This document shows, piece by piece, positions 6,546 to 58,906 of a DNA stretch of 64,000 bases. The first letter of the stretch is position 1; the number at the start of each line of letters is the position of its first letter. The DNA is from an uncultured Gammaproteobacteria bacterium (lineage in GTDB: Bacteria > Patescibacteriota > Patescibacteriia > UBA11705 > DATKZF01). The DNA lies in NCBI GenBank assembly GCA_964411255.1, contig CAYPKD010000004.1, positions 13,093 through 77,092 of the forward strand. Direction: 5' to 3'. Below the pieces are notes generated by a model. The model was not told the origin of the DNA and searched no databases. It saw nothing but the letters and a program-made list of their open reading frames with translations. The translations under genes were made by a program, and so were the position numbers.

Positions 6546-6620
6546 CCCGCTGCCCTGAACGTCATTCCCGCGGAAGCGGGAATTTCTTAATAGTTTTGTA
6601 TAACCCAAAGCTGCGGTAAT
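6546..6620 (+). repeat. dispersed GC-rich hairpin repeat element, copy 1 (about 75 bp; GCTGCCCTGAACGTCATTCC-hairpin-GGAATTTCTTAATAGTTTTGTATAACCCAAAGCTGCGG)
   Basis: About 85% identity by eye to copies at 61021-61092 (reverse), 52385-52500 (reverse) and 41804-41868. Partial similarity to 59600-59672. Confidence 0.55.
6564..6590 (+). terminator. GC-rich hairpin (ATTCCCGCGGAAGCGGGAAT) plus T-rich tail downstream of mrdA. It is part of repeat element copy 1.
   Basis: Perfect 8-bp stem with GGAA loop, followed by TTCTT. Lies 60 nt after the mrdA stop. Confidence 0.5.
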
Positions 6621-6634
6621 GTATACATATAAAT

Positions 6635-7309
6635 ATGAAAGAAAAACCAAAACAATCACTTGAAAATCAATTGCAAATGGCCCGCCCCAAGCGTGCTGAA
6701 GTTAAGCGTGTCCCTTTGACTCCAGAAGAAAAGGAATTTTTAGGTGAGATTATGGATAAGGCTGTGGCAGCAGAAAAGGCAGGGAAGCTGCAAGAAGCAT
6801 TAGATTTATATACTGATTATAAAAATGAATTATTAAAAATTAAAGAAGAAAAAGAAAAATTTGATAAAATAAAAGAAGAACCAGGCATTAAAAGCCTGAT
6901 TGCTATGGGTTTAGATAGAAAATTTATTGAAGAAAACTTTGATCTGACAAAGCTACCTGAGATTAAATCAAAAGGTGACCTGTTATTTAGTGGCATGAAA
7001 ATTAAAGAATTTCCTAATATAACGGTTAATGGCAATTTGGATTTGGGAAGCTCAACAATTAATAAATGGGATAGCGGGGGATTAATGATTAATGGAGATT
7101 TTATTTTATCTGCCGTAGATACAAAGTCATTGCCAGATGGTATATTTGTTGTTGGAAATGTATATTTGCAGAATTCAACAATACAGGATTTGCCTGATGA
7201 ATTTCATGTTGACAGAGATATATATGTTAAAAATTGTAATGCTAAAGTAAAACAAAAAGCTCAAGTGTTAAAGGTAACTGGAAGAATTAAAGGAAGTGTA
7301 CATAATTAG
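6635..7309 (+). CDS. expanded paralog family member A1: conserved N-terminal QMARPKR/LTPEEK helical module plus variable C-terminal LPxxLxVxG repeat domain
   Basis: N-terminal 65 aa near-identical to 14 other ORFs in the window. C-terminal repeats (..LPDGIFVVGNVYLQNSTIQDLPDEFHVDRDIYV..) and a ..TGRIKGSV tail. Confidence 0.8.
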   Translation: MKEKPKQSLENQLQMARPKRAEVKRVPLTPEEKEFLGEIMDKAVAAEKAGKLQEALDLYTDYKNELLKIKEEKEKFDKIKEEPGIKSLIAMGLDRKFIEENFDLTKLPEIKSKGDLLFSGMKIKEFPNITVNGNLDLGSSTINKWDSGGLMINGDFILSAVDTKSLPDGIFVVGNVYLQNSTIQDLPDEFHVDRDIYVKNCNAKVKQKAQVLKVTGRIKGSVHN

Positions 7310-7337
7310 AAAATTCAAGCTGAAGATTTAAAAATTT

Positions 7338-8048
7338 ATGCATGAAAAAAGTTCAAAATCTTTCGAATCCCAACTCCAAATGGCCCGCCCCAAGCGTGCT
7401 GAGGTTAAGCGTGTGCCTTTAACTCCAGAAGAGAAAGAATTTTTAAGAAAAATTATGGATAAGGCAGTGGCTGCGGAAAAGGCTGGAGATTTGCAGCAAG
7501 CTTTGAATTTATATACGGATTATAAAAATGAATTATTAAAAATTAAAGAAGAAAAAGAAAAAAAAGAAAAAGAAGAAAAAGAAGAACGAGGGGGAATTAA
7601 ATGGACAAAGGAAAAATTAGAAAACTGGATTGCTAGCATTGGAATTGCTGAAGAAGATTTTGTGGAACAATATTTTGATTTATCCAAGTTGCCAAAATTA
7701 GAATCAAAAGGTTCTTTGGATTTCAGCAACCTTATGATTGATATGTTTCCTGCTGATATGAAAGTTAAAGGAACTCTTACGTTGAGTAAATCAGTATTTA
7801 GAAAGGGGTTTGGTTCCGGATTGATCGTTAAAGGAGATCTAATAATGAATCGTTCAGCTATTAGTCATTTACCTAATAATATAAAAATTGATGGTAAATT
7901 AATTTTACGAAATTCAACAGTACAAGATTTACCTGATGATATATACATTGGTTCAGATATTTGGGTTGGAAATTGTAAAGAAAAAGTAATTGAAAAAGCA
8001 GGAAGACTTAAAGCTGAAGGAAAAATTAAAGGTGATGTTAAATATTAA
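7338..8048 (+). CDS. paralog family member A2 (mosaic with A4)
   Basis: Same N-terminal module. Central ERGGIKWTKEKLENWIASIGIAEEDFVE and C-terminal LPDDIYIGSDIWVGNCKEKVIEKAGRLKAEGKIKGDVKY are identical to A4. Confidence 0.8.
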   Translation: MHEKSSKSFESQLQMARPKRAEVKRVPLTPEEKEFLRKIMDKAVAAEKAGDLQQALNLYTDYKNELLKIKEEKEKKEKEEKEERGGIKWTKEKLENWIASIGIAEEDFVEQYFDLSKLPKLESKGSLDFSNLMIDMFPADMKVKGTLTLSKSVFRKGFGSGLIVKGDLIMNRSAISHLPNNIKIDGKLILRNSTVQDLPDDIYIGSDIWVGNCKEKVIEKAGRLKAEGKIKGDVKY

Positions 8049-8056
8049 TATCAAGT

Positions 8057-8764
8057 ATGAAATCAGAAAAAGCTGCACAATCACTCGAATCCCAACTTCA
8101 AATGGCCCGCCCGCGGCGCCATGAGGTTAAGCGTGTGCCTTTAACACCTGAAGAAAAGGGATTTCTCGGCGATATTATGGATAAGGCAGTGGCTGCGGAA
8201 AAGGCTGGAAAACTAGCTGAGGCAATTGAATTTTATACAGATTATAAAAATGAATTATTAAAAATTAAAAATAGGATTGAGAAAGAAGAAAGAGGGGAAA
8301 TAGAATGGACAAAGGAAAATCTGGTGGAGTGGGCAAAAGATATAGGTAAGGATGAAAAATTTGTAGAAGATAATTTTGACTTAACTAAATTACCTAAACT
8401 TGAAACAAAGAGCGATTTGACCTTAGATTTTGCAGTTATAGATAAATTCCCTGCAGCAATGAAAGTTAATGGAACGCTTATTATGAACAATGCAACCATA
8501 AAAAAATGGATTGGAACCAATTTAAGTATTAGAAGAAATTTATTTTTGTTTGGAGCAAAAACTGATTATCTGCCAGATAATACTATGGTCTTTCAAGGCA
8601 ACCTCGATATAAGCCAAAGTTCAATTAAAGATTTGCCAGATGATATCTTTATTGGAGGTAGTATTTCAATTGAAGGCGCAAAGCATGAAAAAAAATTAGC
8701 CCAAAAAGCAAGAGAATTAAAAGCCAAAGAGCAAATTGAGGGAGAAATTATTACTAATATGTAG
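8057..8764 (+). CDS. paralog family member A3
   Basis: Same N-terminal module (MKSEKAAQSLESQLQMARPRRHEVKRVPLTPEEKGFLGDIMDKAVAAEKAG..). Divergent C-terminal repeat region. Tail ..AKEQIEGEIITNM. Confidence 0.8.
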   Translation: MKSEKAAQSLESQLQMARPRRHEVKRVPLTPEEKGFLGDIMDKAVAAEKAGKLAEAIEFYTDYKNELLKIKNRIEKEERGEIEWTKENLVEWAKDIGKDEKFVEDNFDLTKLPKLETKSDLTLDFAVIDKFPAAMKVNGTLIMNNATIKKWIGTNLSIRRNLFLFGAKTDYLPDNTMVFQGNLDISQSSIKDLPDDIFIGGSISIEGAKHEKKLAQKARELKAKEQIEGEIITNM

Positions 8765-8797
8765 TCTGTCGATGAGTTTATTTAACTAAAAATATTT

Positions 8798-9508
8798 ATG
8801 AAAAAAGAACAACAATCATTCGAATCCCAACTCCAGATGGCCAGACCAAAACGATCTGAGGTTAAGCGTGTCCCATTGACTCCAGAGGAAAAGGAATTTC
8901 TGGGTGAGATTATGGGCAAGGCTGTGGCTGCTGAGAAAGCTGGGGAATTGAAAGAGGCTTTGAATTTATATACGGATTATAAAAATGAATTATTTAAAAT
9001 TAAAGAAGAAAAAGAAAAAAAAGAAAAAGAAAAAGAAAAAGAAGAACGAGGGGGAATTAAATGGACAAAGGAAAAATTAGAAAACTGGATTGCTAGCATT
9101 GGAATTGCTGAAGAAGATTTTGTTGAAAATCATTTCAATTTATTTAAATTACCAAAATTAGAATCAAAAGGTTTTTTAAATTTCAGCAACCTAATGATTG
9201 CCACATTTCCAGCCAATATGGAAGTGAATGGAGATCTTATACTGCAAAATGCTGAGGTAAAAAAATGGATTGGCTCTGGATTGAGAATAACAGGAGGTTG
9301 CAAATGTGTCAGCGCAAAAATAAAAAATTTGCCAGAAAGAACTACGATTCATGGTGATCTGTCAATAATAAATTCAACTATTGAGGATTTACCTGATGAT
9401 ATATACATTGGTTCAGATATTTGGGTTGGAAATTGTAAAGAAAAAGTAATTGAAAAAGCAGGAAGACTTAAAGCTGAAGGAAAAATTAAAGGTGATGTTA
9501 AATATTAA
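8798..9508 (+). CDS. paralog family member A4 (mosaic with A2)
   Basis: Same N-terminal module. A middle block different from A2 is flanked by blocks identical to A2. Confidence 0.8.
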   Translation: MKKEQQSFESQLQMARPKRSEVKRVPLTPEEKEFLGEIMGKAVAAEKAGELKEALNLYTDYKNELFKIKEEKEKKEKEKEKEERGGIKWTKEKLENWIASIGIAEEDFVENHFNLFKLPKLESKGFLNFSNLMIATFPANMEVNGDLILQNAEVKKWIGSGLRITGGCKCVSAKIKNLPERTTIHGDLSIINSTIEDLPDDIYIGSDIWVGNCKEKVIEKAGRLKAEGKIKGDVKY

Positions 9509-9516
9509 TATCAAGT

Positions 9517-22177: not shown

Positions 22178-22293
22178 GGAATATTCGAATGGCTAATTTT
22201 AGCAATTCGTTGAACATATACAAGTTAGCTGAAAAGGTATGGCCATAGGGGCACGTTCCTTAACATAATACTCAAAATATTTTGGAGGAAAAA

Positions 22294-23712
22294 ATGAGTG
22301 TTATTACAATTGATGCATTCACTGGTATGTATGGATTTAAGCTGGCAAACAGTAGTGGAGAACCCATTACGTTTGTCAAAAAGGAGGGACATGTTTTTTT
22401 GGACAATAGACCGTCCAAAGCGATTACTGGTATGATCATCGACGGTGAATACAAGCCGTGGAGTGAGATTGGTGTCGGTCATATGTCAGAGGAAGGTACG
22501 GTCCGCTGTATGCGAGGCCAGAGCTCTGACAGGCCGTGCACCAACGTGCGAAGTGCGGCAGACGTTGTCTGTCTCGATATGTATCCCGTTCTGCTTTGCG
22601 TGGATCATGCCAAAGCGGGTTTGTCCCATGCGCGGTCAAAGTATGGGGATCGAATCATGTTCCGACCTCTCCAATCAAGGCTCGCATTTGAGTTGAGGAA
22701 CAATCAGGTTCAGGACCTGATTGCTTCTGGCGAAGGTGGCATGACGAGAGAGCAGCTGATCAAGGCTTTCTCAAGCGTCAAGGCCACGTACAAGCTGGAT
22801 GGCCGCGGAGGAGTCGATTTTGACTCTGCCGATATAGACATGGATCAACTCGAACTGGTGGCCGAGCAGCATTCGGTTGACGGTTCCAAGGCTGACAATG
22901 CCTCTACCAAGGATTCGTTTTTCCTGGTCGGTGACAACAATGAAGAAGACGAAGAACGTTTCTTCGTTTTCTCCGGGCAGAATGCTTTGGCAGCCAGAAG
23001 CGAAGGATGTTCTTCCTTCCCGCTGTCTGAGGCTCTGCTCTATCACCGCAACGGTTTCAAGATGTGGGAAAAGGTAGAGGCGCTGCTATTCGGAGAAGAT
23101 CCCAAGGGATTTCCGATCAAAGAATTGGTCGAAGAAATCTTCGCGGATCTGCTCAGGCCTTGCCCTGGTGATAAGGACTACAGGGCTGAAATCTGGGTGG
23201 AATATCCCAAGGCCTTGGACTTCAAGGTTCTGGTCAGGGCAGCGGTCAAGGCCGGGGTGCTGCAGGATGGCACCGAGCTGAAAGAAGATGAAATCGACAA
23301 TCTCAAGAGCGATCCTCTTTCGCTCATTCGTGGCAACTACGACGGAAAGACCGTCCGTTGGCATGTGATGCGCAAGAGTCTGGCCTTCCTGGCTGCTAGG
23401 ATTCTCAACAAGGCTCGCGAGGGTTCGAGAAGGCAGCAGCCCCATGCGCGACCGTATCCGCTTTGTAGCGGACTGCCCTATCAGCGCGAGAATATCCGGG
23501 CGAAGGCCAAGGAAGCTCGCGCAACCTGGGATGATCTGGATGCTCATGAGCCGACTGCTGAGGAGCAGGCCAAGAATAAGAGGCGCAACAAGCGTTTTGA
23601 CGACAGGGGCAAGGGTGCGCGACGTCGAGCGCGTCCGGTTCCTCGGAAGAAAACCAAAGCAGAAAAGCAGGCTGAATTGCATGCCGAGTTGGATGGCCAC
23701 AATGCTGGCTAA
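22294..23712 (+). CDS. compositionally foreign (GC-rich) hypothetical protein with a basic Arg/Lys-rich C-terminal tail. The track ORF begins at a TTG at 22282.
   Basis: About 50-55% GC by eye versus about 30% in flanks. Long ORF with SD and consensus promoter. Tail KRRNKRFDDRGKGARRRARPVPRKKTKAEKQ. No family recognised. Confidence 0.6.
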   Translation: MSVITIDAFTGMYGFKLANSSGEPITFVKKEGHVFLDNRPSKAITGMIIDGEYKPWSEIGVGHMSEEGTVRCMRGQSSDRPCTNVRSAADVVCLDMYPVLLCVDHAKAGLSHARSKYGDRIMFRPLQSRLAFELRNNQVQDLIASGEGGMTREQLIKAFSSVKATYKLDGRGGVDFDSADIDMDQLELVAEQHSVDGSKADNASTKDSFFLVGDNNEEDEERFFVFSGQNALAARSEGCSSFPLSEALLYHRNGFKMWEKVEALLFGEDPKGFPIKELVEEIFADLLRPCPGDKDYRAEIWVEYPKALDFKVLVRAAVKAGVLQDGTELKEDEIDNLKSDPLSLIRGNYDGKTVRWHVMRKSLAFLAARILNKAREGSRRQQPHARPYPLCSGLPYQRENIRAKAKEARATWDDLDAHEPTAEEQAKNKRRNKRFDDRGKGARRRARPVPRKKTKAEKQAELHAELDGHNAG

Positions 23713-36958: not shown

Positions 36959-37888
36959 ATGAAAAATTCTCGCATTATATTCTTCGGTACGCCAGACTTT
37001 GCCATACCAGCTTTAAGAGAACTGGCAGAAAATTTTTCAATTGAAGCGGTGATTACTCAGCCAGATAAACCAAAAGGAAGAAAAAAAGAGCCAATTGCTC
37101 CGCCAATAAAAAAATACGCCTCAACGCGTGATTTTTTAATCCTTCAACCACAAAAATTAGATAAAAAATTTATTGGTCAGCTTGAAAAACTAAAACCAGA
37201 TTTAGGTGTTGTAGTTGCATATGGAAAAATTTTACCTAAGCAAATTCTTGATTTACCAAAACATGGCTGTCTAAATATTCATGCTTCTCTACTTCCAAAA
37301 TATAGAGGCGCAGCTCCAATTCAGGCTGCTTTGCTCAATGGTGATAAAAAGACCGGTATTACCATTATGAAAATTGATAAAGGTTTAGATACTGGAGATA
37401 TTATATCCTCGCAAAGTATTGAAATTCAAAAACAAGATAATTTACAAACTTTACATGATAAACTAGCAGAGCTTGGGGCGCAGCTTTTGATAAAAACAAT
37501 CCCAGATTATATTGCTGGTAAAATTAAACCTCAAAAGCAAGATGAATCAAAAGCCTCAGTCTTCCCTACTATTTCCAAAGGACAAGGTAGAATTTTATGG
37601 AAAAATTCAGCTGAGCATATTTTTAATCAAATACGAGCTTTTACTCCATGGCCAGGCGCATTTACTTTTTATAATAATAAAAAGCTGGACATTATTGAAG
37701 CAGAGCCGGTTGAATGTGGCGAAAATAGACTTATCGGCCAAATCTTTGGGTTTAATAACAAAGTTTTAGTACAGTGCAAGGAAAATTGTTTAGAAATAAA
37801 AAAAGTAAAACTTGAAGGAAAAAAAGAAATTGATATACAAAGCTTTATAAATGGCCATTCAGATTTTATAGGTTTTGAATTAGAATAA
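36959..37888 (+). CDS. fmt: methionyl-tRNA formyltransferase
   Basis: N-terminal IIFFGTPDFAIPAL. Formyltransferase core (..NIHASLLPKYRGAAPIQ..). C-terminal tRNA-binding domain. Follows def. Confidence 0.95.
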   Translation: MKNSRIIFFGTPDFAIPALRELAENFSIEAVITQPDKPKGRKKEPIAPPIKKYASTRDFLILQPQKLDKKFIGQLEKLKPDLGVVVAYGKILPKQILDLPKHGCLNIHASLLPKYRGAAPIQAALLNGDKKTGITIMKIDKGLDTGDIISSQSIEIQKQDNLQTLHDKLAELGAQLLIKTIPDYIAGKIKPQKQDESKASVFPTISKGQGRILWKNSAEHIFNQIRAFTPWPGAFTFYNNKKLDIIEAEPVECGENRLIGQIFGFNNKVLVQCKENCLEIKKVKLEGKKEIDIQSFINGHSDFIGFELE

Positions 37889-37996
37889 TTACTCGGGGAA
37901 TCGCAGATTCCCCTCGGCACACATCTTGCGACGGGAATGGTTGCAGATTTGTTTTATAAATAAAAGAGCAGAAAGTTTGACTTTCTGCTTTTTGAA

Positions 37997-38464
37997 TTAT
38001 TTTGCAGCAGGAGGTTTTAGTCTCTTCTCCATGCGCATTGCCTTATCCAGCTCATCAGCATCATCATCATCGCAAAGGACTGCTTTGCAAACAAGACCCT
38101 TGCATTCAAGCTTATCATAAGTAGTACCTCTGAGCATGACTTCATCATCAGCGCATGCGCCAGTTAAGGAAAGTTCTTTATCAACCTGAGCTCCATTCAA
38201 ATCAATAGAACCCTTGACTCTTACGCCATTTAGCAAAAGAGCGCCTGAAATTGTCATTCCATTTAACAAAAGATTGCCAGCCACTCGAAGACCGCTAAGG
38301 TCAAGGTCACCATCAATCATTGCACCGCTCAGGTTTAATGCTGAGCTGTATGATTTACCACGAAGGTTTAGTGGATCAACCACATGAAAACCTGAAATAT
38401 CTCGAGTTTTAGCTAACTTTCTAATAGCTTCTTCATCAAGTAATTCATGCCGTTTTAGTACCAT
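37997..38464 (-). CDS. pentapeptide-repeat protein
   Basis: Tandem A(D/N)LxG pentapeptides (..LNLSGAMIDGDLDLSGLRVAGNLLLNGMTISGALLLNGVRVKGSIDLNGAQV..). Confidence 0.75.
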   Translation of the reverse strand: MVLKRHELLDEEAIRKLAKTRDISGFHVVDPLNLRGKSYSSALNLSGAMIDGDLDLSGLRVAGNLLLNGMTISGALLLNGVRVKGSIDLNGAQVDKELSLTGACADDEVMLRGTTYDKLECKGLVCKAVLCDDDDADELDKAMRMEKRLKPPAAK

Positions 38465-38501
38465 TTTTGCCTCCTTAGCAATGGGTTTTCAGGGACATAT
38501 T

Positions 38502-39672: not shown

Positions 39673-41748
39673 TTATCTAAGCCAATCGTCAACCTGATCA
39701 TCTGTCGGGCTTGGCACAGGTGGCAATGGCGGATGATATTTTATTGAGTCTAATTTGTTCAGAATATCCAGCTCTTGATTTAATTCATTATCCCCTATTT
39801 TATCCATTTCATTTTGGAAATATTTTGCAAAATCTTCAAAAATGTCTACATAATGTTCAGAAACAACAAGCTCCAATGACTGTCGCTCCCATTGGCCAAG
39901 CTCATATGGCCATGGCGCAATTAATCCAATTTCCTCAGTTACCCGGAAATCCATTACTTCTGGTTCTGGCATTCTGCCTGATGTCATGCCGCTATAATAT
40001 TCTCTTTCATCAATTATCCAATTTTTTATTAAATCAGCATATCTTGAAAGTAAAATACCTTTTTGAATTCCATTGTTTTGATAATAATCAGATTTTTTAT
40101 TTTCAAAATCAATCTTTTTTTCATCAGAATCTTTTTTTCCAGATCTGTCTTCATACGTTGTCTTTAATACAAGTTTACCATTATCTGATGTTTTTTTAAG
40201 TTTTAATAGTACAATTCCACCTTTGGTCTCTCCTTCCTTTGTTTTTGAAGGAAACAAAGTATTTACTTTCATAATTTCTCCGGTAGCTTCATCTGCTTCA
40301 GGTGATCCATAAACTTTTTCAATATCATAACCGTCAGCTTCTAATATTAAATTTAGATCAAAGACCAGTGGCGTAACCATAAATTCAAATTCATCATCCA
40401 TTCTGGTTTTGAATTCATCTTCTGAATGAACAGAATAATAATTTGCTCCTCTGATTTTGGTTAAAGATTCAACAAGATCAGTATTAAAATCAACTCCAAT
40501 TCCAATAAATGTGGTATAAAGGCTATCTTCTGAATTGTTTTCCAGCTGTGAAAATAACCCGCCTCTGGTTGTATCTCCCAAGTTTGGCATTGCATCAGTT
40601 AAAAATATTATTCTATTCTCATATTCATCAGGATTCAATGCCCCTAGCTCATCAAAAAGCTCTGTGCCCTCTTTCATCCCAGCTTCCATATTTGTGCCGC
40701 CCATTGGTTGAATTTTTAAAATATGATCTTCAATTGCATTCATGTCAGTATTACCAACATAATTGAGCGGCTTGGCAAGATATCCATTATCGTCAAAAAG
40801 CACCATCCCAAACCTGTCTTCATCATTTAAATGGTCAAGCAAGGCAACAACAGATTCATTAGCAATTTCCATTTTAGTTTTGTCTGATTCTTTTAAATTC
40901 TCCCTTTCAAGCTGATTGCCAAACTGATCATAATAATATTTATTGAATTGAGAGCTCATTGATCCTGAAATGTCCAACACAATCACCAGGTTAAGCTTTT
41001 TGCGCTCAAAATCGCTTTCCTTTAGGTTTGAATTTAAACCGACTGCTAGATAGTAATCATCTTTATTTGAAATAGGATCTTTAGAAATTGCATATGAATA
41101 GGACGGGCAAAATAATTTTTCGCATTCTTGAGCTTTGCCAGTATCAAAATAATAGTCATAAAACAGGCCTTCATAAGTTATATCAGTTGGCAATGGCAAA
41201 AAATTATTTTTAATATTTTCTCTAAAATTATTAATATCTTTTGCTCCGCCAACAGCAAAACCAATGCTATCATCACCTGCTCCTCCCATTCCATCAGCAG
41301 GAGCCAGACTGGTTTCCAATGCCATATTTTTCATACTTGGTACGCCAGCTTTTTGAGACAAGCTTCTGAAAAATCCAGCATCTTCTTCTTCCTTAGAATA
41401 ATCAAATGTCCAGTCATCCACTTTTTCAACCTGAACAAATACTGGTGGTTCGCCTTGTATATATGTTTTATAAAAATACGGGCCCCCAAAGGCCAGAAGC
41501 AAGATAATTGCTGTAGCGCCTGAAAATGCAAATATCCAGCGCCGCAATTTTTTTAATTGCGCTTTTTTTTCACTGCCCTTTGCTTTTACTTTTAGTTTCT
41601 TTTGCAAATCATTTACAAATTGCTTTGATATTACAATGTTTGGCTTGTTTTTGAGCATTTCTTTTAGCATTTTATTTAATTTTGCCTCATGTTTTTTCAT
41701 AGTGGGATCGATTTTGTAGATTTCTTTTAGTATTTTGTTGATGTTCAT
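39673..41748 (-). CDS. membrane-anchored von Willebrand factor A (VWA) domain protein; candidate anti-sigma factor partner of the upstream ECF sigma
   Basis: About 75-aa cytoplasmic N-terminus and a single TM (WIFAFSGATAIILLLAFGG). Extracytoplasmic VWA with MIDAS DISGSMSS. Gene immediately downstream of and co-directional with the ECF sigma gene. Confidence 0.65.
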   Translation of the reverse strand: MNINKILKEIYKIDPTMKKHEAKLNKMLKEMLKNKPNIVISKQFVNDLQKKLKVKAKGSEKKAQLKKLRRWIFAFSGATAIILLLAFGGPYFYKTYIQGEPPVFVQVEKVDDWTFDYSKEEEDAGFFRSLSQKAGVPSMKNMALETSLAPADGMGGAGDDSIGFAVGGAKDINNFRENIKNNFLPLPTDITYEGLFYDYYFDTGKAQECEKLFCPSYSYAISKDPISNKDDYYLAVGLNSNLKESDFERKKLNLVIVLDISGSMSSQFNKYYYDQFGNQLERENLKESDKTKMEIANESVVALLDHLNDEDRFGMVLFDDNGYLAKPLNYVGNTDMNAIEDHILKIQPMGGTNMEAGMKEGTELFDELGALNPDEYENRIIFLTDAMPNLGDTTRGGLFSQLENNSEDSLYTTFIGIGVDFNTDLVESLTKIRGANYYSVHSEDEFKTRMDDEFEFMVTPLVFDLNLILEADGYDIEKVYGSPEADEATGEIMKVNTLFPSKTKEGETKGGIVLLKLKKTSDNGKLVLKTTYEDRSGKKDSDEKKIDFENKKSDYYQNNGIQKGILLSRYADLIKNWIIDEREYYSGMTSGRMPEPEVMDFRVTEEIGLIAPWPYELGQWERQSLELVVSEHYVDIFEDFAKYFQNEMDKIGDNELNQELDILNKLDSIKYHPPLPPVPSPTDDQVDDWLR

Positions 41749-41803
41749 ATAATTATTTTTTTTAGAGAAATGCGAAAGGCGATATGCGACGAGTTTATTT
41801 TAT

Positions 41804-41868
41804 GCTGCTGCCTGAACTGTCATTCCTGCGTAGGCAGGAATCCAAGTTTAAAAGTGCAGCAGTATTTT
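41804..41868 (+). repeat. GC-rich hairpin repeat element, copy 2 (GCTGCTGCCTGAACTGTCATTCC-TGCGTAGGCA-GGAAT..GCAGCAGT)
   Basis: Shares CTGAAC(T)GTCATTCC plus palindromic GC hairpin architecture with copy 1. Outer arms GCTGCTGC / GCAGCAG are complementary. Confidence 0.5.
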
Positions 41869-41888: not shown

Positions 41889-42449
41889 TCACTTTATTAG
41901 ATTAATAATTTGGCCAAATATTATTATTAATAAAATATTATCTTTTAATTTTTGTGCAGACCTTGAAAAACTAACTTTACATGCATTTTCTGATTTGCCA
42001 ATTATTGACGCAATTTCTTTATATGACAGCCCTTCCCATACTCGTAGAATTACAATTTCCCTTTGCTCTGGGGTTAATGTTTTTAAATACTTTTTCACTT
42101 CTTCTATTTTTAAATTATTACCAATTGTAGTCTCTAAATGATTTGAATCAGCAATTGACCAGAAATCTTCAATGTTTGAATTTGTTTTTTGAGTCCGATA
42201 ATGATCGATAACTGTGTTTCTGGCAATATTAAATAGCCATGTCTGAAATTTTGATTTTGAATCATCAAATTTTTCTAAATTATCCAAAGCTTTAAAAAAC
42301 ACTGTACTGGTCAAATCTTCAGCACTTTCTTTGTGCATTGTTTTGTAAAATACAAATTTGTATATTTTTTCAATGTATTTTTTGTACAATTTATCAAAAG
42401 CTTTTGAATTCCCGTCTAAATACTTTTGAATATAGAATGAATCATTCAT
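41889..42449 (-). CDS. ECF-type RNA polymerase sigma-70 family factor
   Basis: Region 2 (..FQTWLFNIARNTVIDHYR..) and region 4 HTH (..LSYKEIASIIGKSENACKVSFSRSAQKLK..). 186 aa. Confidence 0.85.
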   Translation of the reverse strand: MNDSFYIQKYLDGNSKAFDKLYKKYIEKIYKFVFYKTMHKESAEDLTSTVFFKALDNLEKFDDSKSKFQTWLFNIARNTVIDHYRTQKTNSNIEDFWSIADSNHLETTIGNNLKIEEVKKYLKTLTPEQREIVILRVWEGLSYKEIASIIGKSENACKVSFSRSAQKLKDNILLIIIFGQIINLIK

Positions 42450-49563: not shown

Positions 49564-50271
49564 TTATTTTAGATCAATTTCTCCTTTAATTTTACCTTCT
49601 TTTTTACGTTTTACCAGCTCCTTTATCATTTCTGTTTCATGCTCTTTTATATATACTCTTCCCCCAACATATATATCATCTGGTATTTTTTTATTTTTTA
49701 TTGAAGTTCCGGATAAACTTAGAGATCCTTCAACTCTAAGGCTATTGGGTAAACAATCTATATTTGCGTTCACAAAAGTACAAGTTTGTGTAACATGCAA
49801 ATTAGCTGGCATCTTTTCAACAGTTGAATTTACTAATGATAAATTGCCATTAATGCGTAAATTGTTTGGTAAAAACGATAACTTCATACTTCGTAAGTTT
49901 AGATCTGATTTTGTTTTTATTACTGGTAATTCATCTAATATAAAAGCTGCATCAACATAATTTGCCGCATTTTCCTCCCAGGAATAAATCTGAATTGCCC
50001 AGCTAATTAAATGAGCTCTGGCAACTTTAACGTCTTTAATCTCCTTTTCAACTTTTTTTTCTTTTATTTTAAGCAACTCATTTTTATAATCAGTATAAAA
50101 ATTTAATGCTTCCTGCAATTCTCCAGCTTTTTCCGCAGCTACTGCTTTATCCATAATCTCACCCAGAAAGTCCTTTTCTTCTGGAGTTAAAGGTACACGC
50201 TTAACCTCAGCCCGCCGCGGGCGGACCATTTTTAATTGACTTTCTAATGATTGAGGTTCTTCTGTTTTCAT
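49564..50271 (-). CDS. paralog family member C1
   Basis: N-terminal module MKTEEPQSLESQLKMVRPRRAEVKRVPLTPEEKDFLGEIMDKAVAAEKAGELQEALNFYTDYKNELLKIKE. C-terminal LPNNLRINGNLSL / LPNSLRVEGSLSL repeats. Tail ..KKEGKIKGEIDLK. Confidence 0.8.
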   Translation of the reverse strand: MKTEEPQSLESQLKMVRPRRAEVKRVPLTPEEKDFLGEIMDKAVAAEKAGELQEALNFYTDYKNELLKIKEKKVEKEIKDVKVARAHLISWAIQIYSWEENAANYVDAAFILDELPVIKTKSDLNLRSMKLSFLPNNLRINGNLSLVNSTVEKMPANLHVTQTCTFVNANIDCLPNSLRVEGSLSLSGTSIKNKKIPDDIYVGGRVYIKEHETEMIKELVKRKKEGKIKGEIDLK

Positions 50272-50274
50272 ATT

Positions 50275-50988
50275 TTACATTTCAGTTATTACTCTACCTC
50301 TGATATTACCTTCTGATTTTAATTGGTGGGCTTTGTTAATCACTTTTTTATTGCAATTTACAAGAAAAATATCTGCTCCAACATATAATTCATCTGGCAA
50401 ATCCTGAATTGTTGAATTATTCATATCTAGATTTCCATCAACATGCATATTTTCTGGTAAAGATTCAATTTGGGCGTGATCCATAAGAACGTCTCCATTC
50501 ACATCTAAATTTGTGCCAATCCATTCTTTTACTACAGCTCTATCCAGATCCAAACGTCCATAAATTGTTATATTTGCAGGAAATTCATCGATTACCTTAG
50601 CAGCCAATTCTAAATCTCCCACAGTCTCCAGTTTAGGGAGTTTTGGTATATCAAAAATTTTGTGAGCCTTTTCCTCAAAAGTCATTTCTTCTGGTGGTGT
50701 TTTAAAGACATTTTCAACCCACTTTACCAATTTTTCTTTTGTCCAGCCTGTTTCTTCTTTTTTTTCTTTTTCCCTTGTTTCTTTAATCCTTAACAATTCA
50801 TTCTTATAATCCGTGTAAAAATTTAAGGCCGCTTGCAATTCTCCTGCCTTTTCCGCAGCCACAGCCTTATCCATAATCTCACCTAGAAAAGCCTTTTCTT
50901 CTGGAGTTAAAGGTACACGTTTAACCTCATGGCGCCGCGGGCGAGCCATTTTGAGTTGGGATTCGAGTGATTGGGCTTTTTCCTTCAT
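50275..50988 (-). CDS. paralog family member C2
   Basis: Same N-terminal module. C-terminal repeats. Tail ..KSEGNIRGRVITEM. Confidence 0.8.
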   Translation of the reverse strand: MKEKAQSLESQLKMARPRRHEVKRVPLTPEEKAFLGEIMDKAVAAEKAGELQAALNFYTDYKNELLRIKETREKEKKEETGWTKEKLVKWVENVFKTPPEEMTFEEKAHKIFDIPKLPKLETVGDLELAAKVIDEFPANITIYGRLDLDRAVVKEWIGTNLDVNGDVLMDHAQIESLPENMHVDGNLDMNNSTIQDLPDELYVGADIFLVNCNKKVINKAHQLKSEGNIRGRVITEM

Positions 50989-50991
50989 ATT

Positions 50992-51645
50992 TTATAAAAA
51001 TTTTATTTCACCTTTGATCAGACCTTTTTCCTTTAATTTATTAAATTTATCCTTCAACTCATTAAGAGTTTTAATAGTTAATCCTATATCTTCTACATAT
51101 AAATTCCCACCAATAAATATTGAATCAGGGATATGCATATTTTCAATATCATAACCTGGTATTAATAAATTTGCGCCAACATGAAAGTTTTCAGGTAAAC
51201 TTTTTATTCTTGTATTTCTCAGCGTACAGCTACCTGCAACTTTAAAATTATTCGGTAATTCTGTGGCATTTGAATCTTCTAATTTAAAATTATCTTTAGT
51301 CCTAATTTCATTAGAGTCATCATCCATACAGGTAGGATCAAGCCATTGAAATATCCATTCCATTGGATTTCCTTCAATGAATTCATCAGCCCAAGCTTCT
51401 AGATCTGCATAACCCCAGGTTTGCTCTACTTTTTCCTTTATTTTCAACAATTCATCTTTATATTCTTGATAATATTCAATTGCCTTTGCTAATTCTCCAG
51501 CCTTTTCCGCAGCCACAGCCTTATCCATTATCTCACCTAGAAAAGCCTTTTCTTCCGGAGTAAGCGGTACACGTTTAATCTCAGCGCGTTTTGGGCGGGC
51601 CATTTGGAGTTGGGATTCGAGTGATTGTTCTGGAGTATTTTGCAT
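50992..51645 (-). CDS. paralog family member C3
   Basis: Same N-terminal module. Distinct Trp-rich middle (TWGYADLEAWADEFIEGNPMEWIFQWLDP). LPNNFKVAGSCTL / LPENFHVGANLLI repeats. Tail ..KEKGLIKGEIKFL. Confidence 0.8.
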   Translation of the reverse strand: MQNTPEQSLESQLQMARPKRAEIKRVPLTPEEKAFLGEIMDKAVAAEKAGELAKAIEYYQEYKDELLKIKEKVEQTWGYADLEAWADEFIEGNPMEWIFQWLDPTCMDDDSNEIRTKDNFKLEDSNATELPNNFKVAGSCTLRNTRIKSLPENFHVGANLLIPGYDIENMHIPDSIFIGGNLYVEDIGLTIKTLNELKDKFNKLKEKGLIKGEIKFL

Positions 51646-51650
51646 AGTTC

Positions 51651-52352
51651 TTATGTTATTTTAATATCACCCTTGATATCGCCCTGCTTTTTAAATTTCT
51701 CTATTTCTTTTACCATATCTGGGTCTGATTCACTTACATATACTTCTTCTTCAACATGTAAAGATTCAGGTTCTTTTTTATTATTTATTTCAGCTTTTGT
51801 CATATCTAAAAGACCTCCAATAATCATGGTTTTTGGTAATTGATTAATTTTTACAAATCTTAAAATACAATTTTCATTCGTATATAAAGCATTTGGCATT
51901 TTCTTAATAGTACAGTTGGTTGAAACAAAGCTCCCATTAACATGTAAAACGTTTGGCAAATCCTCAAGTATCATATTATTAAAGGTCATATTTCCTTTTG
52001 TTTGAATTATAGGTAATTCATCTAATACAAAATTTGCCTCTACATATCTCTCAGCTCTTTGTGTTGATAATCCTAGATTTCTTATAGCCCAATGAATTAA
52101 ATCTTGCTCAGTCCATTCCTTTTCTTCCTCTTCTTTTCTTTCTTTTATTTTTAGCAATTCATTCTTATAATCAGTATATAAATCCAAAGCTTCCTGCAAT
52201 TCCCCAGCCTTTTCCGCAGCCACAGCCTTATCCATAATTTTTCCTAAAAATTCCTTCTCTTCTGGTGTTAAAGGAACACGCTTAACCTCAGCACGCTTTG
52301 GCCGGGCCATTTTGAGTTGGGATTCTAAGGATTGTGGTTGTTCTTTTGGCAT
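51651..52352 (-). CDS. paralog family member C4
   Basis: Same N-terminal module. Tail ..KKQGDIKGDIKIT. Confidence 0.8.
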   Translation of the reverse strand: MPKEQPQSLESQLKMARPKRAEVKRVPLTPEEKEFLGKIMDKAVAAEKAGELQEALDLYTDYKNELLKIKERKEEEEKEWTEQDLIHWAIRNLGLSTQRAERYVEANFVLDELPIIQTKGNMTFNNMILEDLPNVLHVNGSFVSTNCTIKKMPNALYTNENCILRFVKINQLPKTMIIGGLLDMTKAEINNKKEPESLHVEEEVYVSESDPDMVKEIEKFKKQGDIKGDIKIT

Positions 52353-52380
52353 AAAGTCATTAGATATTTATCATTGTTCA

Positions 52381-52542
52381 TTAGGGTTTAAAATAGGGCC
52401 GCTGCTTTGGATTACGCAAAACTAACAGAAAGATTTCTCCATTCCGTCCGCCCTTGGCGGACTTCAGTCGAAATGACAAGCGAGGGCAGCGAGCCATTTG
52501 GAGTTGGGATTTGGGTAATTGTGGCTTTTCTTTTATGTTCAT
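52381..52542 (-). pseudogene. truncated paralog remnant: first 18 codons of a family gene (MNIKEKPQLPKSQLQMAR) fused to a copy of the hairpin repeat element
   Basis: Reverse-strand translation matches the family N-terminus up to QMAR and then reads into the repeat element (52385-52500, reverse orientation; about 85% identity to copy 1). Confidence 0.6.
52385..52500 (-). repeat. GC-rich hairpin repeat element, copy 3 (inside the truncated paralog)
   Basis: Reverse complement reads CGCTGCCCTCGCTTGTCATTTCGACTGAAGTCCGCCAAGGGCGGACGGAATGGAGAAATCTTTCTGTTAGTTTTGCGTAATCCAAAGCAGCGG. Collinear with copy 1, including the palindromic hairpin and the TAGTTTTG..CCAAAGC(A/T)GCGG tail. Confidence 0.55.
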
Positions 52543-52548
52543 ACGAAT

Positions 52549-53256
52549 TTAATTCTTCCAAATAATTTCTCCAATGATTTTCCCTTCACCTTTTAATTTA
52601 TTTAATAGGTCCATAACATTTCCATGAATTGGTTTATTCAAATACACATTGCCTCCAATGAAAATTGTATCTGATATTTTATTATCAATAAAAACTATGT
52701 CATCTAATATTAAATCTCCACTAATATTTAATAGGGCTGGTATTGTATCAATATTGGCTTTTTGTATTAATAAATTCTTATCAACAGTTAATGTCTGAGG
52801 CATTTTTTTAATGATACCTTGTATGGTCATAGATCCTTTTACATGAATATTTTCAGGTATCGTTTCTATATTGACATGTGAAGATAAATCTAAGTCTTTC
52901 TTGGCAATTATTTTGGGATATTCTTCAAAATCAAAATGCTCATCTACCCAGCTTTCACAATCTCTGGCAATTTCATGTTGTTTTGCCCATTCTATAAGAT
53001 CATTTCTTTGCTGCAGTCGTAAAGATTGCTCTTTTTCTAATCGTTCTTTAATCTTCAATAATTCATTCTTATATTCTGTATACAAATCCAAAGATTTTTG
53101 CAATTCCCCGGCCTTTTCCGCAGCCACAGCCTTATCCATAATGTCGCCTAAAAATTCTTTTTCCTCAGGTGTCAATGGTACACGCTTAACCTCAGCACGC
53201 TTTGGCCGGGCCATTTTAAGTTGATTTTCTAATGATTGCGGCTGTTCTTTCTTCAT
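52549..53256 (-). CDS. paralog family member C5 (track ORF extends to 53319; family-consistent start MKKEQPQSLENQLKMARP at 53256)
   Basis: Same N-terminal module. Start lies 1 nt after the AMMECR1 stop. Tail ..KGEGKIIGEIIWKN. Confidence 0.75.
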   Translation of the reverse strand: MKKEQPQSLENQLKMARPKRAEVKRVPLTPEEKEFLGDIMDKAVAAEKAGELQKSLDLYTEYKNELLKIKERLEKEQSLRLQQRNDLIEWAKQHEIARDCESWVDEHFDFEEYPKIIAKKDLDLSSHVNIETIPENIHVKGSMTIQGIIKKMPQTLTVDKNLLIQKANIDTIPALLNISGDLILDDIVFIDNKISDTIFIGGNVYLNKPIHGNVMDLLNKLKGEGKIIGEIIWKN

Positions 53257-55337: not shown

Positions 55338-55997
55338 TTAAAAACGTTCTTTTATACCTAAAACTCGTCCTGCTCTTAAAGCCTCTAGAGCTGATTTGAT
55401 TAAAGCTTTATTATCTGGGCTTACATAAACTTTACCGTTTACAGTATTGAATTGAGGTAATGATTTTATGTTTAAGCCCCGCAAATCTAGATCACCATTC
55501 ACCTCTAAATGTTCAGGTAATTCTATTATGTTTTTAGAATCTTTTAATGAAAGATCTCCAATAATGTATAAATTCTCAGGTAAATATTCCAAATTATCTT
55601 CATTTTCAATGCTCAATGAGCTATTAATAATAATTTTTCCTGGAAAATCCTCATCAAATTCTACTGCTGAATTCACCCAAAATTTTGCAAATGAAATGTT
55701 TGTCAAATTCGTTTTAACCCAGTCAATAAGCCCTTTCCTGGCTTTTTCAATAATTTCTTGTTTTGACATTGTTTGGCTTTCCTTTCTTTCTTTTATTTTC
55801 AGCAATTCATTCTTGTAATCAGTATAAAATCCCAAGGCCTTTTCTAATTCTCCAGCCTTTTCAGCAGCCACTGCCTTATCCATAATCTCGCCCAGAAACT
55901 TCTTTTCTTCTGGAGTCAATGGCACGCGCTTAACCTCAGCGCGCTTTGGACGGGCCATTTTGAGTTGGGATTCTAAAGATTGGGATTTTTCCGGCAT
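55338..55997 (-). CDS. paralog family member D1
   Basis: N-terminal module MPEKSQSLESQLKMARPKRAEVKRVPLTPEEKKFLGEIMDKAVAAEKAGELEKALGFYTDYKNELLKIKE. LPENLYIIGDLSL / LPEHLEVNGDLDL / LPQFNTVNGKVYV repeats. Confidence 0.8.
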   Translation of the reverse strand: MPEKSQSLESQLKMARPKRAEVKRVPLTPEEKKFLGEIMDKAVAAEKAGELEKALGFYTDYKNELLKIKERKESQTMSKQEIIEKARKGLIDWVKTNLTNISFAKFWVNSAVEFDEDFPGKIIINSSLSIENEDNLEYLPENLYIIGDLSLKDSKNIIELPEHLEVNGDLDLRGLNIKSLPQFNTVNGKVYVSPDNKALIKSALEALRAGRVLGIKERF

Positions 55998-55998
55998 A

Positions 55999-56667
55999 TT
56001 ATTTTACTTGAGTAACTTTACCTATTTGTCCTTTTTTTTCCAATTTTTTAGCTTGATCTAGCAGATCTGTATCAGTTTTTTTAATAAATATATTCATTGC
56101 TACTTTTAGATCATCTGGTAACTCTTTGATATTCGCATTTACAAGATGAAGATCTTTATTAACTACTAGGTTTCTAGGCAAATACTTAAAATCATTCCGT
56201 TCAATAATTAAAGTCCCATCAACAATTAAATGATTTGGTAATCTTTTAATATCATAAACAGCAGGATTGATTCGAAGATCACCTTTTATTTTAAGATGTG
56301 GAAGAGGGGCTGATCTGTCAAACTTCTTCTCTATCCAATTTACAGCAGCTTGTCCTGAAAATCCGACTTCATTATGTACCCAGTCTAATACCTCTTCAGG
56401 AAGATTTAAATCAAAACCCTCATCTGACTTTTTTTTCTTTTCTTGTTCTTTTTTATCTTTTATCCTTAATAATTCATTTTTATAATCAGTATACAAATTC
56501 AAAGCTTCTTGCAATTTCCCAGTTTTTTCCGCAGCTACAGCTTGATCCATTATCTTTCCGAGAAAATCCTTTTCTTCAGGAGTTAAAGGCACACGCTTAA
56601 CTTCAGCGCGCTTTGGGCGGGCCATTTTGAGTTGATTTTCTAATGATTGGGGTTGTTCTTTTGGCAT
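55999..56667 (-). CDS. paralog family member D2
   Basis: Same N-terminal module. LPNHLIVDGTLII / LPRNLVVNKDLHL / LPDDLKVAMNIFI repeats. Confidence 0.8.
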   Translation of the reverse strand: MPKEQPQSLENQLKMARPKRAEVKRVPLTPEEKDFLGKIMDQAVAAEKTGKLQEALNLYTDYKNELLRIKDKKEQEKKKKSDEGFDLNLPEEVLDWVHNEVGFSGQAAVNWIEKKFDRSAPLPHLKIKGDLRINPAVYDIKRLPNHLIVDGTLIIERNDFKYLPRNLVVNKDLHLVNANIKELPDDLKVAMNIFIKKTDTDLLDQAKKLEKKGQIGKVTQVK

Positions 56668-56675
56668 AATTAGAG

Positions 56676-58157: not shown

Positions 58158-58183
58158 ATTGTTATATGATATATGTTACATGA

Positions 58184-58906
58184 TTAAAGTTTTTCAGGCA
58201 TAAATGATGCCTTTTCCGTTTTCATTAATTCTTTAATATACTTTTGTGCTTTTTTATCTTTTTTTATTGACTCTTCAAGATCCTTTTCAATCTCTGGCTT
58301 AATGTCCATCTCAAATCGTTCAAATGATTTTTCTGATAAATTTTCATCATTTAAAATTTCAATAATTTTCAAACTCTCTTCAGGTAAATTAAAAAAATCA
58401 AGCGAATTATCCTTTTCAACATTATATTTGTCAATCAATATTCTTCTAAATTTTCTCAGACCACCTATTTCAGCCATTGAATCTAAAACGAGCTCTTTTT
58501 GATTAACTACAAAATTTATTTCTTCCTGCCAATGCTGCGGGTCATCAGCCTTAGCCTTAGCCTTTGCCATTGTATATCTGCGAATTAAATAATCTAAAAT
58601 CATTTCTCTTTTATATAATGTTTTAATATTATCAATTATCTCTTCATGTTTTTTCTCCTTTATACGATTTATTTCTTTTTTCCTCTCTTCCTGCAATTTA
58701 TCGTTTATTTTCATTAATTCGTTTTTATAATCAGTATACAAATCTAGGGCTTCTTTTAGTTTCCCCGCTTTCTCTGCCGCCACTGCCTTATCCATTATCT
58801 TTCCGATAAATTCCTTTTCTTCTGGCGTTAAGGGCACACGCTTAACCTCACTCCGCCGCGAGCGGGCCATCTTCAATTGACTTTCAAGTGATTGTTCTGC
58901 TTTCAT
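58184..58906 (-). CDS. paralog family member D4: N-terminal module fused to an unrelated charged helical C-terminal region
   Basis: N-terminal module (MKAEQSLESQLKMARSRRSEVKRVPLTPEEKEFIGKIMDKAVAAEKAGKLKEALDLYTDYKNELMKI). C-terminal part lacks LP repeats. Confidence 0.75.
   Translation of the reverse strand: MKAEQSLESQLKMARSRRSEVKRVPLTPEEKEFIGKIMDKAVAAEKAGKLKEALDLYTDYKNELMKINDKLQEERKKEINRIKEKKHEEIIDNIKTLYKREMILDYLIRRYTMAKAKAKADDPQHWQEEINFVVNQKELVLDSMAEIGGLRKFRRILIDKYNVEKDNSLDFFNLPEESLKIIEILNDENLSEKSFERFEMDIKPEIEKDLEESIKKDKKAQKYIKELMKTEKASFMPEKL

Follow-up and report, generated by a model that had tools for sequence, protein, structure and literature searches.

An NTS-like hairpin repeat with conserved arms beside variable gene arrays in a Patescibacteria-like bacterium

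Contig CAYPKD010000004.1, from an uncultured bacterium, carries a GC-rich sequence that recurs between its genes, and the question it raises is what kind of element this is and whether it acts as DNA or as RNA. We addressed this question in a 64-kb stretch of the contig (positions 13,093 to 77,092, hereafter the window), in which an original prediction, made from the letters alone, had noted five copies and described them as a dispersed, structured repeat resembling repetitive extragenic palindromic (REP) sequences or miniature inverted-repeat transposable elements (MITEs). The description as a dispersed, structured intergenic repeat of the REP kind is upheld by our analyses. The family is a non-autonomous intergenic repeat of ~65–100 bp that occurs only in a small clade of Patescibacteria-like bacteria for which metagenomes are the sole source, and its central hairpin is, judging by sequence, a member of the pan-bacterial class that comprises the dRS3 repeat, the Neisseria Transformation Sequence (NTS), and the Ssn-related motif (SRM). 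We favor, with a probability of roughly 0.55, the interpretation that the family belongs to the hairpin repeats of the NTS/REP type, is non-autonomous, acts at the level of DNA, and marks the borders between gene cassettes that recombine.

Anatomy and covariation of the repeat family

All five predicted copies are present at or near the coordinates given for them (copies 1–5, predicted at 6546, 41804, 52385, 61021, and 59600, respectively; Table 1). When all of the window was searched, unfiltered, with a covariance model derived from 11 short-form copies, exactly these five were recovered, none missing and none added (E-values of 5e-21, 6e-17, 5e-11, 0.003, and 0.009; next match, E 0.22). Their limits shift on refinement, copy 5 in particular being longer than the predicted 59600–59672. 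The motif ATTCC-N10-GGAAT is observed three times in the window against 0.18 expected, the 20-nt head twice against 0.00, and the tail motif four times against 0.09, and a search of the window for other GTCAT-hairpin modules gave AT-rich chance matches only. The copies are indeed GC islands, as had been noted, with 41–50% G+C against ~32% for the window. All five are intergenic, and three of the five precede genes of a paralog family described below. The density of five copies in 64 kb compares with 11, again all intergenic, in ~135 kb of DNA that was counted without redundancy and comes from this population or a close relative of it.

Further copies were sought in metagenomes with a pattern that fixed the head and the 3' end only, and then with a profile and the covariance model on DNA around paralog-family members and homologs of the window genes. 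The pattern scan returned 38 loci, of which the true ones lie in six low-GC contigs from related samples and hold seven element copies; the remaining loci are high-GC chance matches, and a single viral-contig match is likewise due to chance. In total, ~17 copies beyond the five of the window were found in DNA of the same or related populations. The counts given below refer to the 19 copies that we analyzed; three more were found later in the related loci L177 and L178 (loci from other assemblies carry L numbers, followed where needed by coordinates). The original prediction had made its case depend on additional copies and on covariation, and both were found, as extra copies in the lineage and as paired changes.

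When the copies are aligned together with their flanks, similarity begins and ends at a terminal inverted repeat of 6–8 bp (CCGCTGYC at the 5' end, GCAGCGG at the 3' end), which closes every copy, pairs around the inner hairpin in predicted folds, and had escaped the original prediction. Each copy has four parts: this terminal inverted repeat, a conserved 5' arm (consensus CCGCTGYCC-N4-6-GTCAT), a highly variable hairpin, and a conserved AT-rich 3' arm (consensus ATCTCTTAATnGTTTTGnATAAYCCAAAGCAGCGG). GTCAT is present in 19 of 19 copies and ATC in 17 of 19, the exceptions being copies 1 and 4, which have ATT. The segment between GTCAT and ATC takes at least 10 stem forms among the 19 copies, among them TCCCGCG/CGCGGGA, TCCTGCG/CGCAGGA, TCCCAA/TTGGGA, CTCGAG.../...CTCGAGAG, and long compound stems, and it includes nested hairpin insertions. 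The window samples this diversity. Copy 1 has the 3' arm TTCTTAATAGTTTTGTATAACCCAAAGC; copy 2 has an extended outer stem (ATGCTGCTGCC/GTGCAGCAGTAT) and a truncated 3' arm; the compound hairpin of copy 3 contains GTCCGCCAAGGGCGGAC (52462–52446); the hairpin of copy 4, ATTCCCGCAAAGGTGGGAAT (61077–61058), has one G-T pair and is followed by T; and in copy 5 a stem ATCTCT...AGAGAT encloses a second stem, GCCCT...AGGGC. Two details that had been read from the window alone needed amendment: three of the quoted palindromes are perfect but CCCGCAAAGGTGGG holds one G-T pair, and four of the five copies have the conserved tail, that of the short variant, copy 2, being different and truncated.

Complementarity is kept across the family, as the claim of compensatory change had it; much of the stem variation, however, is not compensatory substitution one position at a time but wholesale replacement or nested insertion of hairpin modules, as illustrated by two neighboring copies of L131 (5391 and 4093), which differ solely by a nested 20-nt hairpin, CCTGCCTGCCATCAGGCAGC. 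Among the 11 short copies, 89% of cells pair, compared with 25–53% in controls in which the partners were slid by one to three columns. Four pairs change on both sides in this set, split evenly between the inner and the outer stem; the outer-stem changes are T-A to C-G in L001 and C-G to T-A in copy 2 (U-A in place of C-G at pair 5-75). L177 has, elsewhere, two diverged tandem copies, one of which ends in CCGCC.../...GGCGG and so provides another two-sided change in the outer stem. When folded as DNA, the 8-bp hairpins of the ATTCC type are predicted to be more stable than shuffled sequences, with z-scores of -3.2 (copy 4) to -6.0 (copy 2) and -4.6 for copy 1; the whole of copy 2 folds at -33 kcal/mol (z -7.3).

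Relation to the NTS, dRS3, and other hairpin repeats

The NTS is CGTCATTCCCGCGMAVGCGGGAATCYRG and contains the older dRS3 repeat, ATTCCC-N8-GGGAAT; a looser motif, the SRM, has also been defined and is common in many bacteria (PMC11893778). SsnA, a GIY-YIG protein of 94 aa, binds and cuts the NTS hairpin as single-stranded DNA (ssDNA) only; cleavage is governed by the bases just 5' of the palindrome and binding mostly by the C just 3' of it, whereas the stem sequence varies among NTS, NTSvar, and SRM (PMC11893778). SsnA lowers the integration of transforming DNA that bears the motif (PMC11893778). This description of the Ssn nuclease dates from 2025, and Patescibacteria go unmentioned in it (PMC11893778).

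The oriented architecture of Ssn targets recurs in our family: a palindromic stem is preceded by GTCAT and directly followed by ATC. Copy 1 matches the NTS consensus at 24 of 28 positions, and copies 1 and 4 match dRS3 exactly; copy 2 reads ATTCCT...AGGAAT, and the two long variants do not fit dRS3. As in the NTS and SRM, the hairpins are multi-copy and intergenic, they flank variable genes, and fixed flanks enclose a free stem, which is the pattern that a protein reading the flanks plus the shape of the hairpin would leave. Unlike those motifs, the element adds two conserved arms and a terminal inverted repeat, which are undescribed in PMC11893778, its stems are far more diverse within one family, and its host is Patescibacteria-like. 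The original prediction was right that the element is structured, as RNA or DNA, but did not recognize the hairpin as the dRS3/NTS/SRM motif, which points to ssDNA at least as much as to RNA.

The breadth of the hairpin class was confirmed in a scan of a genome collection, one genome per species, with the pattern GCTGYC-N6-GTCATTCC-N10-GGAAT. The matches listed include more than 118 loci, from Proteobacteria, Dehalococcoidia, Acidobacteriota, Nitrospirota, Planctomycetota, Rickettsia, and others; nearly all have a perfect stem of the type CCCGCG, CCGGCG, or CCTGCG with ATCCAG after it. The host genome is not among the matches listed. Since the pattern demanded GCTGYC, the scan is uninformative on the conservation of the head outside the lineage. 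Two of the listed loci adjoin small GIY-YIG genes. In L102 1469–1843 (-) and L077 295–678 (-), frames upstream of small GIY-YIG (Ssn-like) genes translate the hairpin as 'VIPAKAGIQ'; hairpin repeats of this kind create spurious N-terminal extensions and open reading frames (ORFs) in annotations. We also observed that many metagenome-assembled genomes of Dehalococcoidia (L009, L017, L021, L033, L039, L048, L051, L053, L055, L057, L060, L065, and others) carry a highly conserved composite repeat of ~100 nt, ACCGGATTGGGCAGCGCTGCCAACACCGTCATTCCGGCGAACGCCGGAATCCAGGGAACAGTGCAGAATGTACTTTCCTGGACACCGGCTTACGCCGGTG, with this hairpin at its center; the window is thus not the only place where an NTS-like hairpin is framed by lineage-specific arms.

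Other known repeats resemble the element in part. Neisserial intergenic mosaic elements (NIMEs) consist of variable RS blocks bounded by dRS3 on both sides. The element shares with dRS3 and NIMEs a mosaic, modular, intergenic character and a location near sequence-variable genes, and two copies are exact dRS3 matches; it differs in that one variable hairpin stands between constant arms, which are not dRS3. In REP systems, a hairpin with a conserved GTAG-like head is accompanied by a gene for a RAYT, a Y1 transposase of the IS200/IS605-like kind, that is flanked by REPs. Like REPs and the bacterial interspersed mosaic elements built from them, the element is a short intergenic hairpin that lacks target-site duplications, for which action on ssDNA has been proposed and terminator effects may occasionally occur; in contrast to REPs, it has no GTAG-type head, its hairpin being flanked by GTCAT and ATC, and a Pfam scan of the window ORFs revealed no RAYT or TnpA (Y1 transposase). 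Rickettsia palindromic elements and MITEs such as Correia are likewise dispersed palindromic elements of ~100 bp, in small AT-rich genomes and sometimes in or next to genes, but our copies lack target-site duplications, only one abuts a truncated coding sequence, and none is translated in frame.

No Rfam family reaches its threshold in the window. When the segment 6534–6650 is compared with the Francisella small RNA (sRNA) FtrB (RF02748), copy 1 matches weakly, with 24.9 bits and E 0.025 against a gathering threshold of 66. Its consensus contains GUCAUUCCCGCGUAGGCGGGAAUCUCUUUAAU, which is the same hairpin and the start of the 3' arm; the likeness is confined to the hairpin region, and the element is not a member of RF02748. 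The FtrB model holds an NTS-like hairpin, GUCAUUCCCGCGUAGGCGGGAAUC, and this published sRNA may be a transcribed copy of the same hairpin class.

Gene arrays, orthologous sites, and host

Three of the window copies adjoin arrays of a paralog family (Table 1). The three arrays hold fifteen genes, of which ten belong to B1 and B2; these two are parted by queA, spoU, and AMMECR1, and both are absent from relatives of 69–75% identity. The proteins, of ~230 aa, combine a conserved, nearly invariant helical N-domain (MKEKPKQSLENQLQMARPKR...) with a variable solenoid that resembles leucine-rich repeats (LRRs). An AlphaFold2 model (pLDDT 92) has the helical N-domain and a beta-solenoid, and the LRR resemblance is weak. 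The family has no Pfam or NCBIfam domain and no evident signal peptide, and only 55 members were found among 5.8 billion proteins, all of them from this clade. The 'MARPKR...' N-terminus of the genes downstream of the element led us to consider an IS630-type transposase, with the element as the end of an insertion sequence; we rejected this idea, as no Pfam or NCBIfam transposase matched and the AlphaFold2 model is of a helical domain with an LRR-like solenoid. One member of B1 is unusual in size: the 493-aa protein encoded at 56676–58157 (-) contains at least seven tandem repeats of 111 nt (37 aa) at 56763–57650 (repeat families D5 and D9) and has no significant domain match.

Ten of the 19 copies lie 12–46 nt upstream of genes of this family and are co-oriented with them, and genes in the interior of the arrays are without the element. 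In the window, copy 1 lies between the stop codon of mrdA (encoding PBP2; 6505) and the ATG of the first gene of array A (6635), copy 5 between the stop codon of an AhpC/TSA gene (59679) and the ATG of the first gene of B1 (59557), and copy 3 within B2, 46 nt upstream of the gene at 51651–52352. The other two copies adjoin no paralog. Copy 2 is antisense to both of its neighbors, genes for an ECF sigma factor (41889–42449, -) and a VWA protein (39673–41748, -), and copy 4 starts 1 nt past the stop codon of a glycoside hydrolase (GH)-like gene (61094–62134) and ends 24 nt before a DUF389 gene (60305–61000).

Copy 3 is preceded by a stub of a paralog gene that runs directly into its 5' end, the junction being where the gene's ATGGC(C/T)CGC overlaps the element's CGCTGCC. 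The alignment of the stub has a local score of 44, which none of 200 shuffles equaled, and the stub is a member of repeat family D4 (52489–52539). The orthologous copy in L132 (20–111) has an identical hairpin and adjoins the same 17-codon stub, and in L173 the copy at 9859 is followed by a stub of seven codons. We rejected the possibility that such a stub precedes every copy, which the resemblance of several 5' flanks to codons 12–18 of family genes had suggested by eye; alignment backs it for copy 3 and its orthologue only.

Three relatives, L178 (92% identity), L180 (75%), and L177 (69%), conserve the gene order SPP-EamA-GH-DUF389-AhpC-queA-spoU-AMMECR1-HD and thereby provide filled and empty orthologous sites. 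In the GH/DUF389 interval, the element and ~25 nt more are present in the window and in L178; L180 and L177 lack them, with only 2 and 6 nt, respectively, separating the stop codon from the start codon. AhpC is followed in the window by the element, four paralogs, and then a 219-aa paralog; in L178 the 219-aa paralog alone follows, 2 nt past the stop codon, and L180 and L177 proceed straight to queA. Compared with L178, copy 5 and four paralog genes are thus an insertion at the AhpC site. After AMMECR1, the window has no element, whereas L132 has GCGGAC direct repeats and an element. In L132, cassettes of element and genes also follow one another in a different order than in the window. Such direct repeats (GCGGAC-N-GYGGAC) stand directly upstream of copies in three relatives (L131 5468–5503, L132 969–1004, L173 9831–9846), are absent from the window, and could be a protein-binding site or another repeat module.

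Over short times, then, both the element and the arrays come, go, and change their arrangement, by whatever process, and the element is found preferentially at the edges of cassettes. The arrays are, moreover, assembly-unstable or polymorphic in the population, given that independent assemblies break there (the end of L001 at 13574, the end of L162, and the starts of L168–L170 all fall inside arrays) and that a second assembly of array A, L172, has shorter versions of two genes.

The window is otherwise ordinary chromosome, with mreBCD-mrdA, genes for aminoacyl-tRNA synthetases, clpB, priA, fmt, def, and genes for cell-envelope glycosyltransferases, and no tRNA or rRNA genes were found in it. 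The same DNA is present in several JGI, ENA, and Logan metagenome assemblies, one sample being JGI 3300018080. We treat the host as Patescibacteria-like because the named DUF389 homologs all come from lineages of the Patescibacteria or the Candidate Phyla Radiation (Magasanikbacteria, Uhrbacteria, Buchananbacteria, WWE3, and Jorgensenbacteria; 38–51% identity) and because neighboring loci encode a type IV secretion system pilin (PF18895), PilM, and a VirB4/TrwB-like ATPase; this assignment comes from sequence likeness and not from a phylogeny. The cumulative GC skew peaks at ~37000–38500, where mostly forward-strand genes on the left converge with mostly reverse-strand genes on the right, and this region is probably the replication terminus. 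With the skew switching at 37–38 kb, the GTCAT strand is the expected lagging-strand template in four of the five window copies, a hint of action on that template that is confounded with gene orientation and comes from too few copies to count as evidence. A second kind of GC-rich island spans 22400–23700 (1.3 kb, 52–58% G+C in a 32% G+C genome) and coincides with a 476-aa ORF at 22282–23712 (+) with a TTG start. Its codon bias is coding-like (GC1 0.59, GC2 0.41, and GC3 0.58, compared with 0.49/0.32/0.31 for mrdA), its C-terminus is rich in Lys and Arg, and it has no Pfam match, a sub-threshold NCBIfam match only, and no Rfam match above threshold; it is probably a horizontally acquired gene.

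Table 1. Coordinates of the repeat copies, their parts, and the associated paralog arrays in the window
Feature	Position	Strand	Description
Copy 1 (6546)	6547–6616	+	70 nt; covariance model 92 bits, E 5e-21
Copy 1, outer inverted repeat	6547–6553 / 6610–6616	+	CCGCTGC / GCTGCGG
Copy 1, GTCAT	6561–6565	+	
Copy 1, hairpin	6564–6583	+	ATTCCCGCGGAAGCGGGAAT, then T in place of the usual C
Copy 2 (41804)	41802–41865	+	short variant, 64 nt; 52.7 bits
Copy 2, GTCAT	41819–41823	+	
Copy 2, hairpin	41822–41841	+	ATTCCTGCGTAGGCAGGAAT, then CCA
Copy 3 (52385)	52399–52491	-	long-hairpin variant, 93 nt; 22 bits, E 0.003
Copy 3, 5' end	52491–52485	-	CGCTGCC
Copy 3, GTCAT	52477–52473	-	
Copy 3, ATC	52434–52432	-	
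Copy 3, 3' end	52405–52399	-	GCAGCGG
Paralog stub	52492–52542	-	truncated 5' gene end, 17 codons, MNIKEKPQLPKSQLQMA
Copy 4 (61021)	61025–61092	-	68 nt; 76 bits
Copy 4, 5' end	61092–61086	-	GCTGTCC
Copy 4, GTCAT	61080–61076	-	
Copy 4, 3' end		-	GCAGTAA, degenerate
Copy 5 (59600)	59576–59670	-	long degenerate hairpin variant, 95 nt; 20 bits, E 0.009; nhmmer E 6e-16
Copy 5, 5' end	59670–59662	-	CCGCTGTCC
Copy 5, GTCAT	59657–59653	-	
Copy 5, 3' end	59581–59576	-	CAGCGG
Array A	6635–10287	+	five tandem genes, 224–256 aa; copy 1 at head
Array B2	49564–53256	-	copy 3 inside
Array B1	55338–59557	-	copy 5 at head

Competing explanations and biological meaning

The interpretation of the element as a DNA-level hairpin repeat at cassette boundaries draws on what we observed of its anatomy, its hairpin class, the lack of target-site duplications, the filled and empty orthologous sites, and the link to the arrays; for the ssDNA form, the nuclease, and the effect on recombination, we infer from Neisseria by analogy, and the link of Ssn to this family has the same source. 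The element would act as ssDNA, which is exposed while DNA is being taken up or on the template for the lagging strand, and would there adopt a closed stem around an inner hairpin. A small trans-acting, hairpin-specific nuclease of the GIY-YIG Ssn type might then read GTCAT, the stem, and ATC, and bind and nick the element. Nicking would cut recombination tracts short at the element, and it may also spread, renew, or exchange hairpins and seed the insertion of adjacent cassettes. In this lineage, the element marks the upstream edge of variable LRR-like gene cassettes that are gained, lost, and reshuffled between close relatives.

Several observations weigh against this interpretation. The published motif patterns have no exact match in the window, either for the NTS (searched with one mismatch allowed) or for the SRM (HGTCWYN(0-2)YYVSBRHN(0-5)WNVSBRGN(0-2)RNCYNB), and no copy passes when the one-mismatch tolerance is judged by hand; the best, copy 1, has four mismatches to the NTS, and stems of the CCTGCG type fail the SRM at one position, yet are common in other phyla. 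The C on which SsnA depends for binding is replaced by T in copies 1 and 4. L132 882 and L178 2671, which correspond to them in relatives, carry the canonical C, and the stem of the L178 copy, the orthologue of copy 4, is perfect where copy 4 has a G-T pair, so that copies 1 and 4 look like decaying sites. A genome with Ssn targets would be expected to encode a single-domain GIY-YIG nuclease (cd10448), as a rule with the motif beside its gene; neither the window nor lineage DNA totaling ~357 kb (redundant) yielded an Ssn or GIY-YIG gene. This absence weighs little because only three ssn genes were seen in ~0.9 Mb of NTS-bearing loci from other phyla. Hairpins of the ATCTC type are, in DNA fold predictions, no more stable than shuffled sequence, and stems contain several G-T pairs, which are more comfortable in RNA than in DNA. 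The link to the gene family could in part reflect joint duplication rather than function. Finally, the co-orientation of 14 of the 19 copies with their flanking genes and the conservation of the 3' arm are also predicted by a role in RNA or as a promoter.

The first of these roles, in which the transcribed hairpin and closing stem serve as an intrinsic terminator or insulator or as a stabilizing or regulatory 5' leader of the paralogs, we regard as doubtful. The terminator activity suggested by the original prediction suits copy 1, which directly follows mrdA and fits the terminator pattern (a G+C-rich, co-oriented stem and a T run), but the other four window copies fail that pattern, and five of the 19 copies are antisense to both neighbors. 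The co-oriented majority, the ten copies shortly before family start codons, the tolerance of G-U pairs in stems, and the weak match of copy 1 to the FtrB model, an expressed sRNA with the same hairpin, are what such a role would lead one to expect; a stem free in sequence and length between fixed, unpaired GTCAT and ATC suggests recognition by a protein and not a simple terminator, Rfam gave no match at threshold, unrelated phyla carry this hairpin in every kind of context, and genes at the empty orthologous sites manage without the element. We give less credence to a promoter or operator of the paralog family, with the 3' arm (and the GCGGAC repeats in relatives) as regulatory DNA that travels with the genes and the other copies as orphaned promoters. 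Array heads usually bear the element, which stands a short and rather uniform distance before the ATG; in copy 5, the 3' arm is overlapped by a sigma-70-like TTGAAT-18-TATATT, and GCGGAC-N-GYGGAC repeats precede three copies in relatives. Copies 1 and 2, however, have no promoter-like site, copy 3 matches on the opposite strand only, the 3' arm varies at the putative hexamers, nine of the 19 copies are not beside family genes, the GCGGAC repeats are missing from the window, and the hairpin and terminal inverted repeat would be left unexplained.

It is very unlikely that the element is a passive relic, that is, a shared upstream region of duplicated genes with neither mobility nor function of its own. 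The similarity of the first genes of arrays A and B1 does continue upstream into the tail of the element (inverted repeat I1, 6587–6874 vs 59318–59605), and copy 1 and L132 882 have a common 18-nt leader, but copies stand in unrelated contexts (GH/DUF389, sigma/VWA, DEAD helicase/DciA, after a pilin gene, and before a gene for a secreted protein), similarity ends sharply at the terminal inverted repeats, and the GH/DUF389 insertion is unlinked to a paralog; copies without an adjoining paralog have already largely refuted this explanation. A classical MITE, a deletion derivative of an insertion sequence that a DDE transposase moves by reading the terminal inverted repeats, was among the original suggestions and is the most improbable of the explanations considered here. 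The terminal inverted repeats, the size, the dispersed copies, and the filled and empty sites would fit; the inverted repeats are only 6–8 bp, target-site duplications are lacking (at most one of 18 copies at any offset, for lengths of 2–8 nt), Pfam scans of the window and the lineage loci revealed no transposase, and the GH/DUF389 insertion takes in ~25 nt beyond the element.

Returning to the hairpin repeat that acts as DNA at cassette boundaries, we can envisage a stronger form, which we consider speculative and unlikely, in which cassette exchange is programmed: the nuclease would cut incoming or replicating ssDNA and thereby swap, insert, or delete the element and LRR-like cassettes at array heads, diversifying the family. 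If this were true, a family of host-interaction or surface proteins would be diversified much like pilin or opa variation in Neisseria, and the exchangeable hairpins would be addresses for different nuclease paralogs in a DNA-scavenging lineage of Patescibacteria.

Earlier work has described the hairpin class, how widely it occurs, and its nuclease. New here are the Patescibacteria-like host, an exchangeable hairpin framed by constant arms and a terminal inverted repeat, a diversity of stems that is unusually wide for a single family, and the position at the heads of variable LRR-like arrays. An anonymous GC-rich repeat of an uncultured, tiny-genome bacterium is hereby tied to a hairpin class with biochemistry from 2025, which suggests that the Ssn system reaches Patescibacteria. 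The elements and arrays also appear to break assemblies, contigs ending inside arrays. With GTCAT and ATC fixed and the stem changing, the family is a natural mutational series that could help to define what such nucleases read, and, with the element at the borders of arrays that differ even between relatives of 92% identity, it makes hairpin-delimited recombination testable in bacteria thought to depend on DNA uptake.

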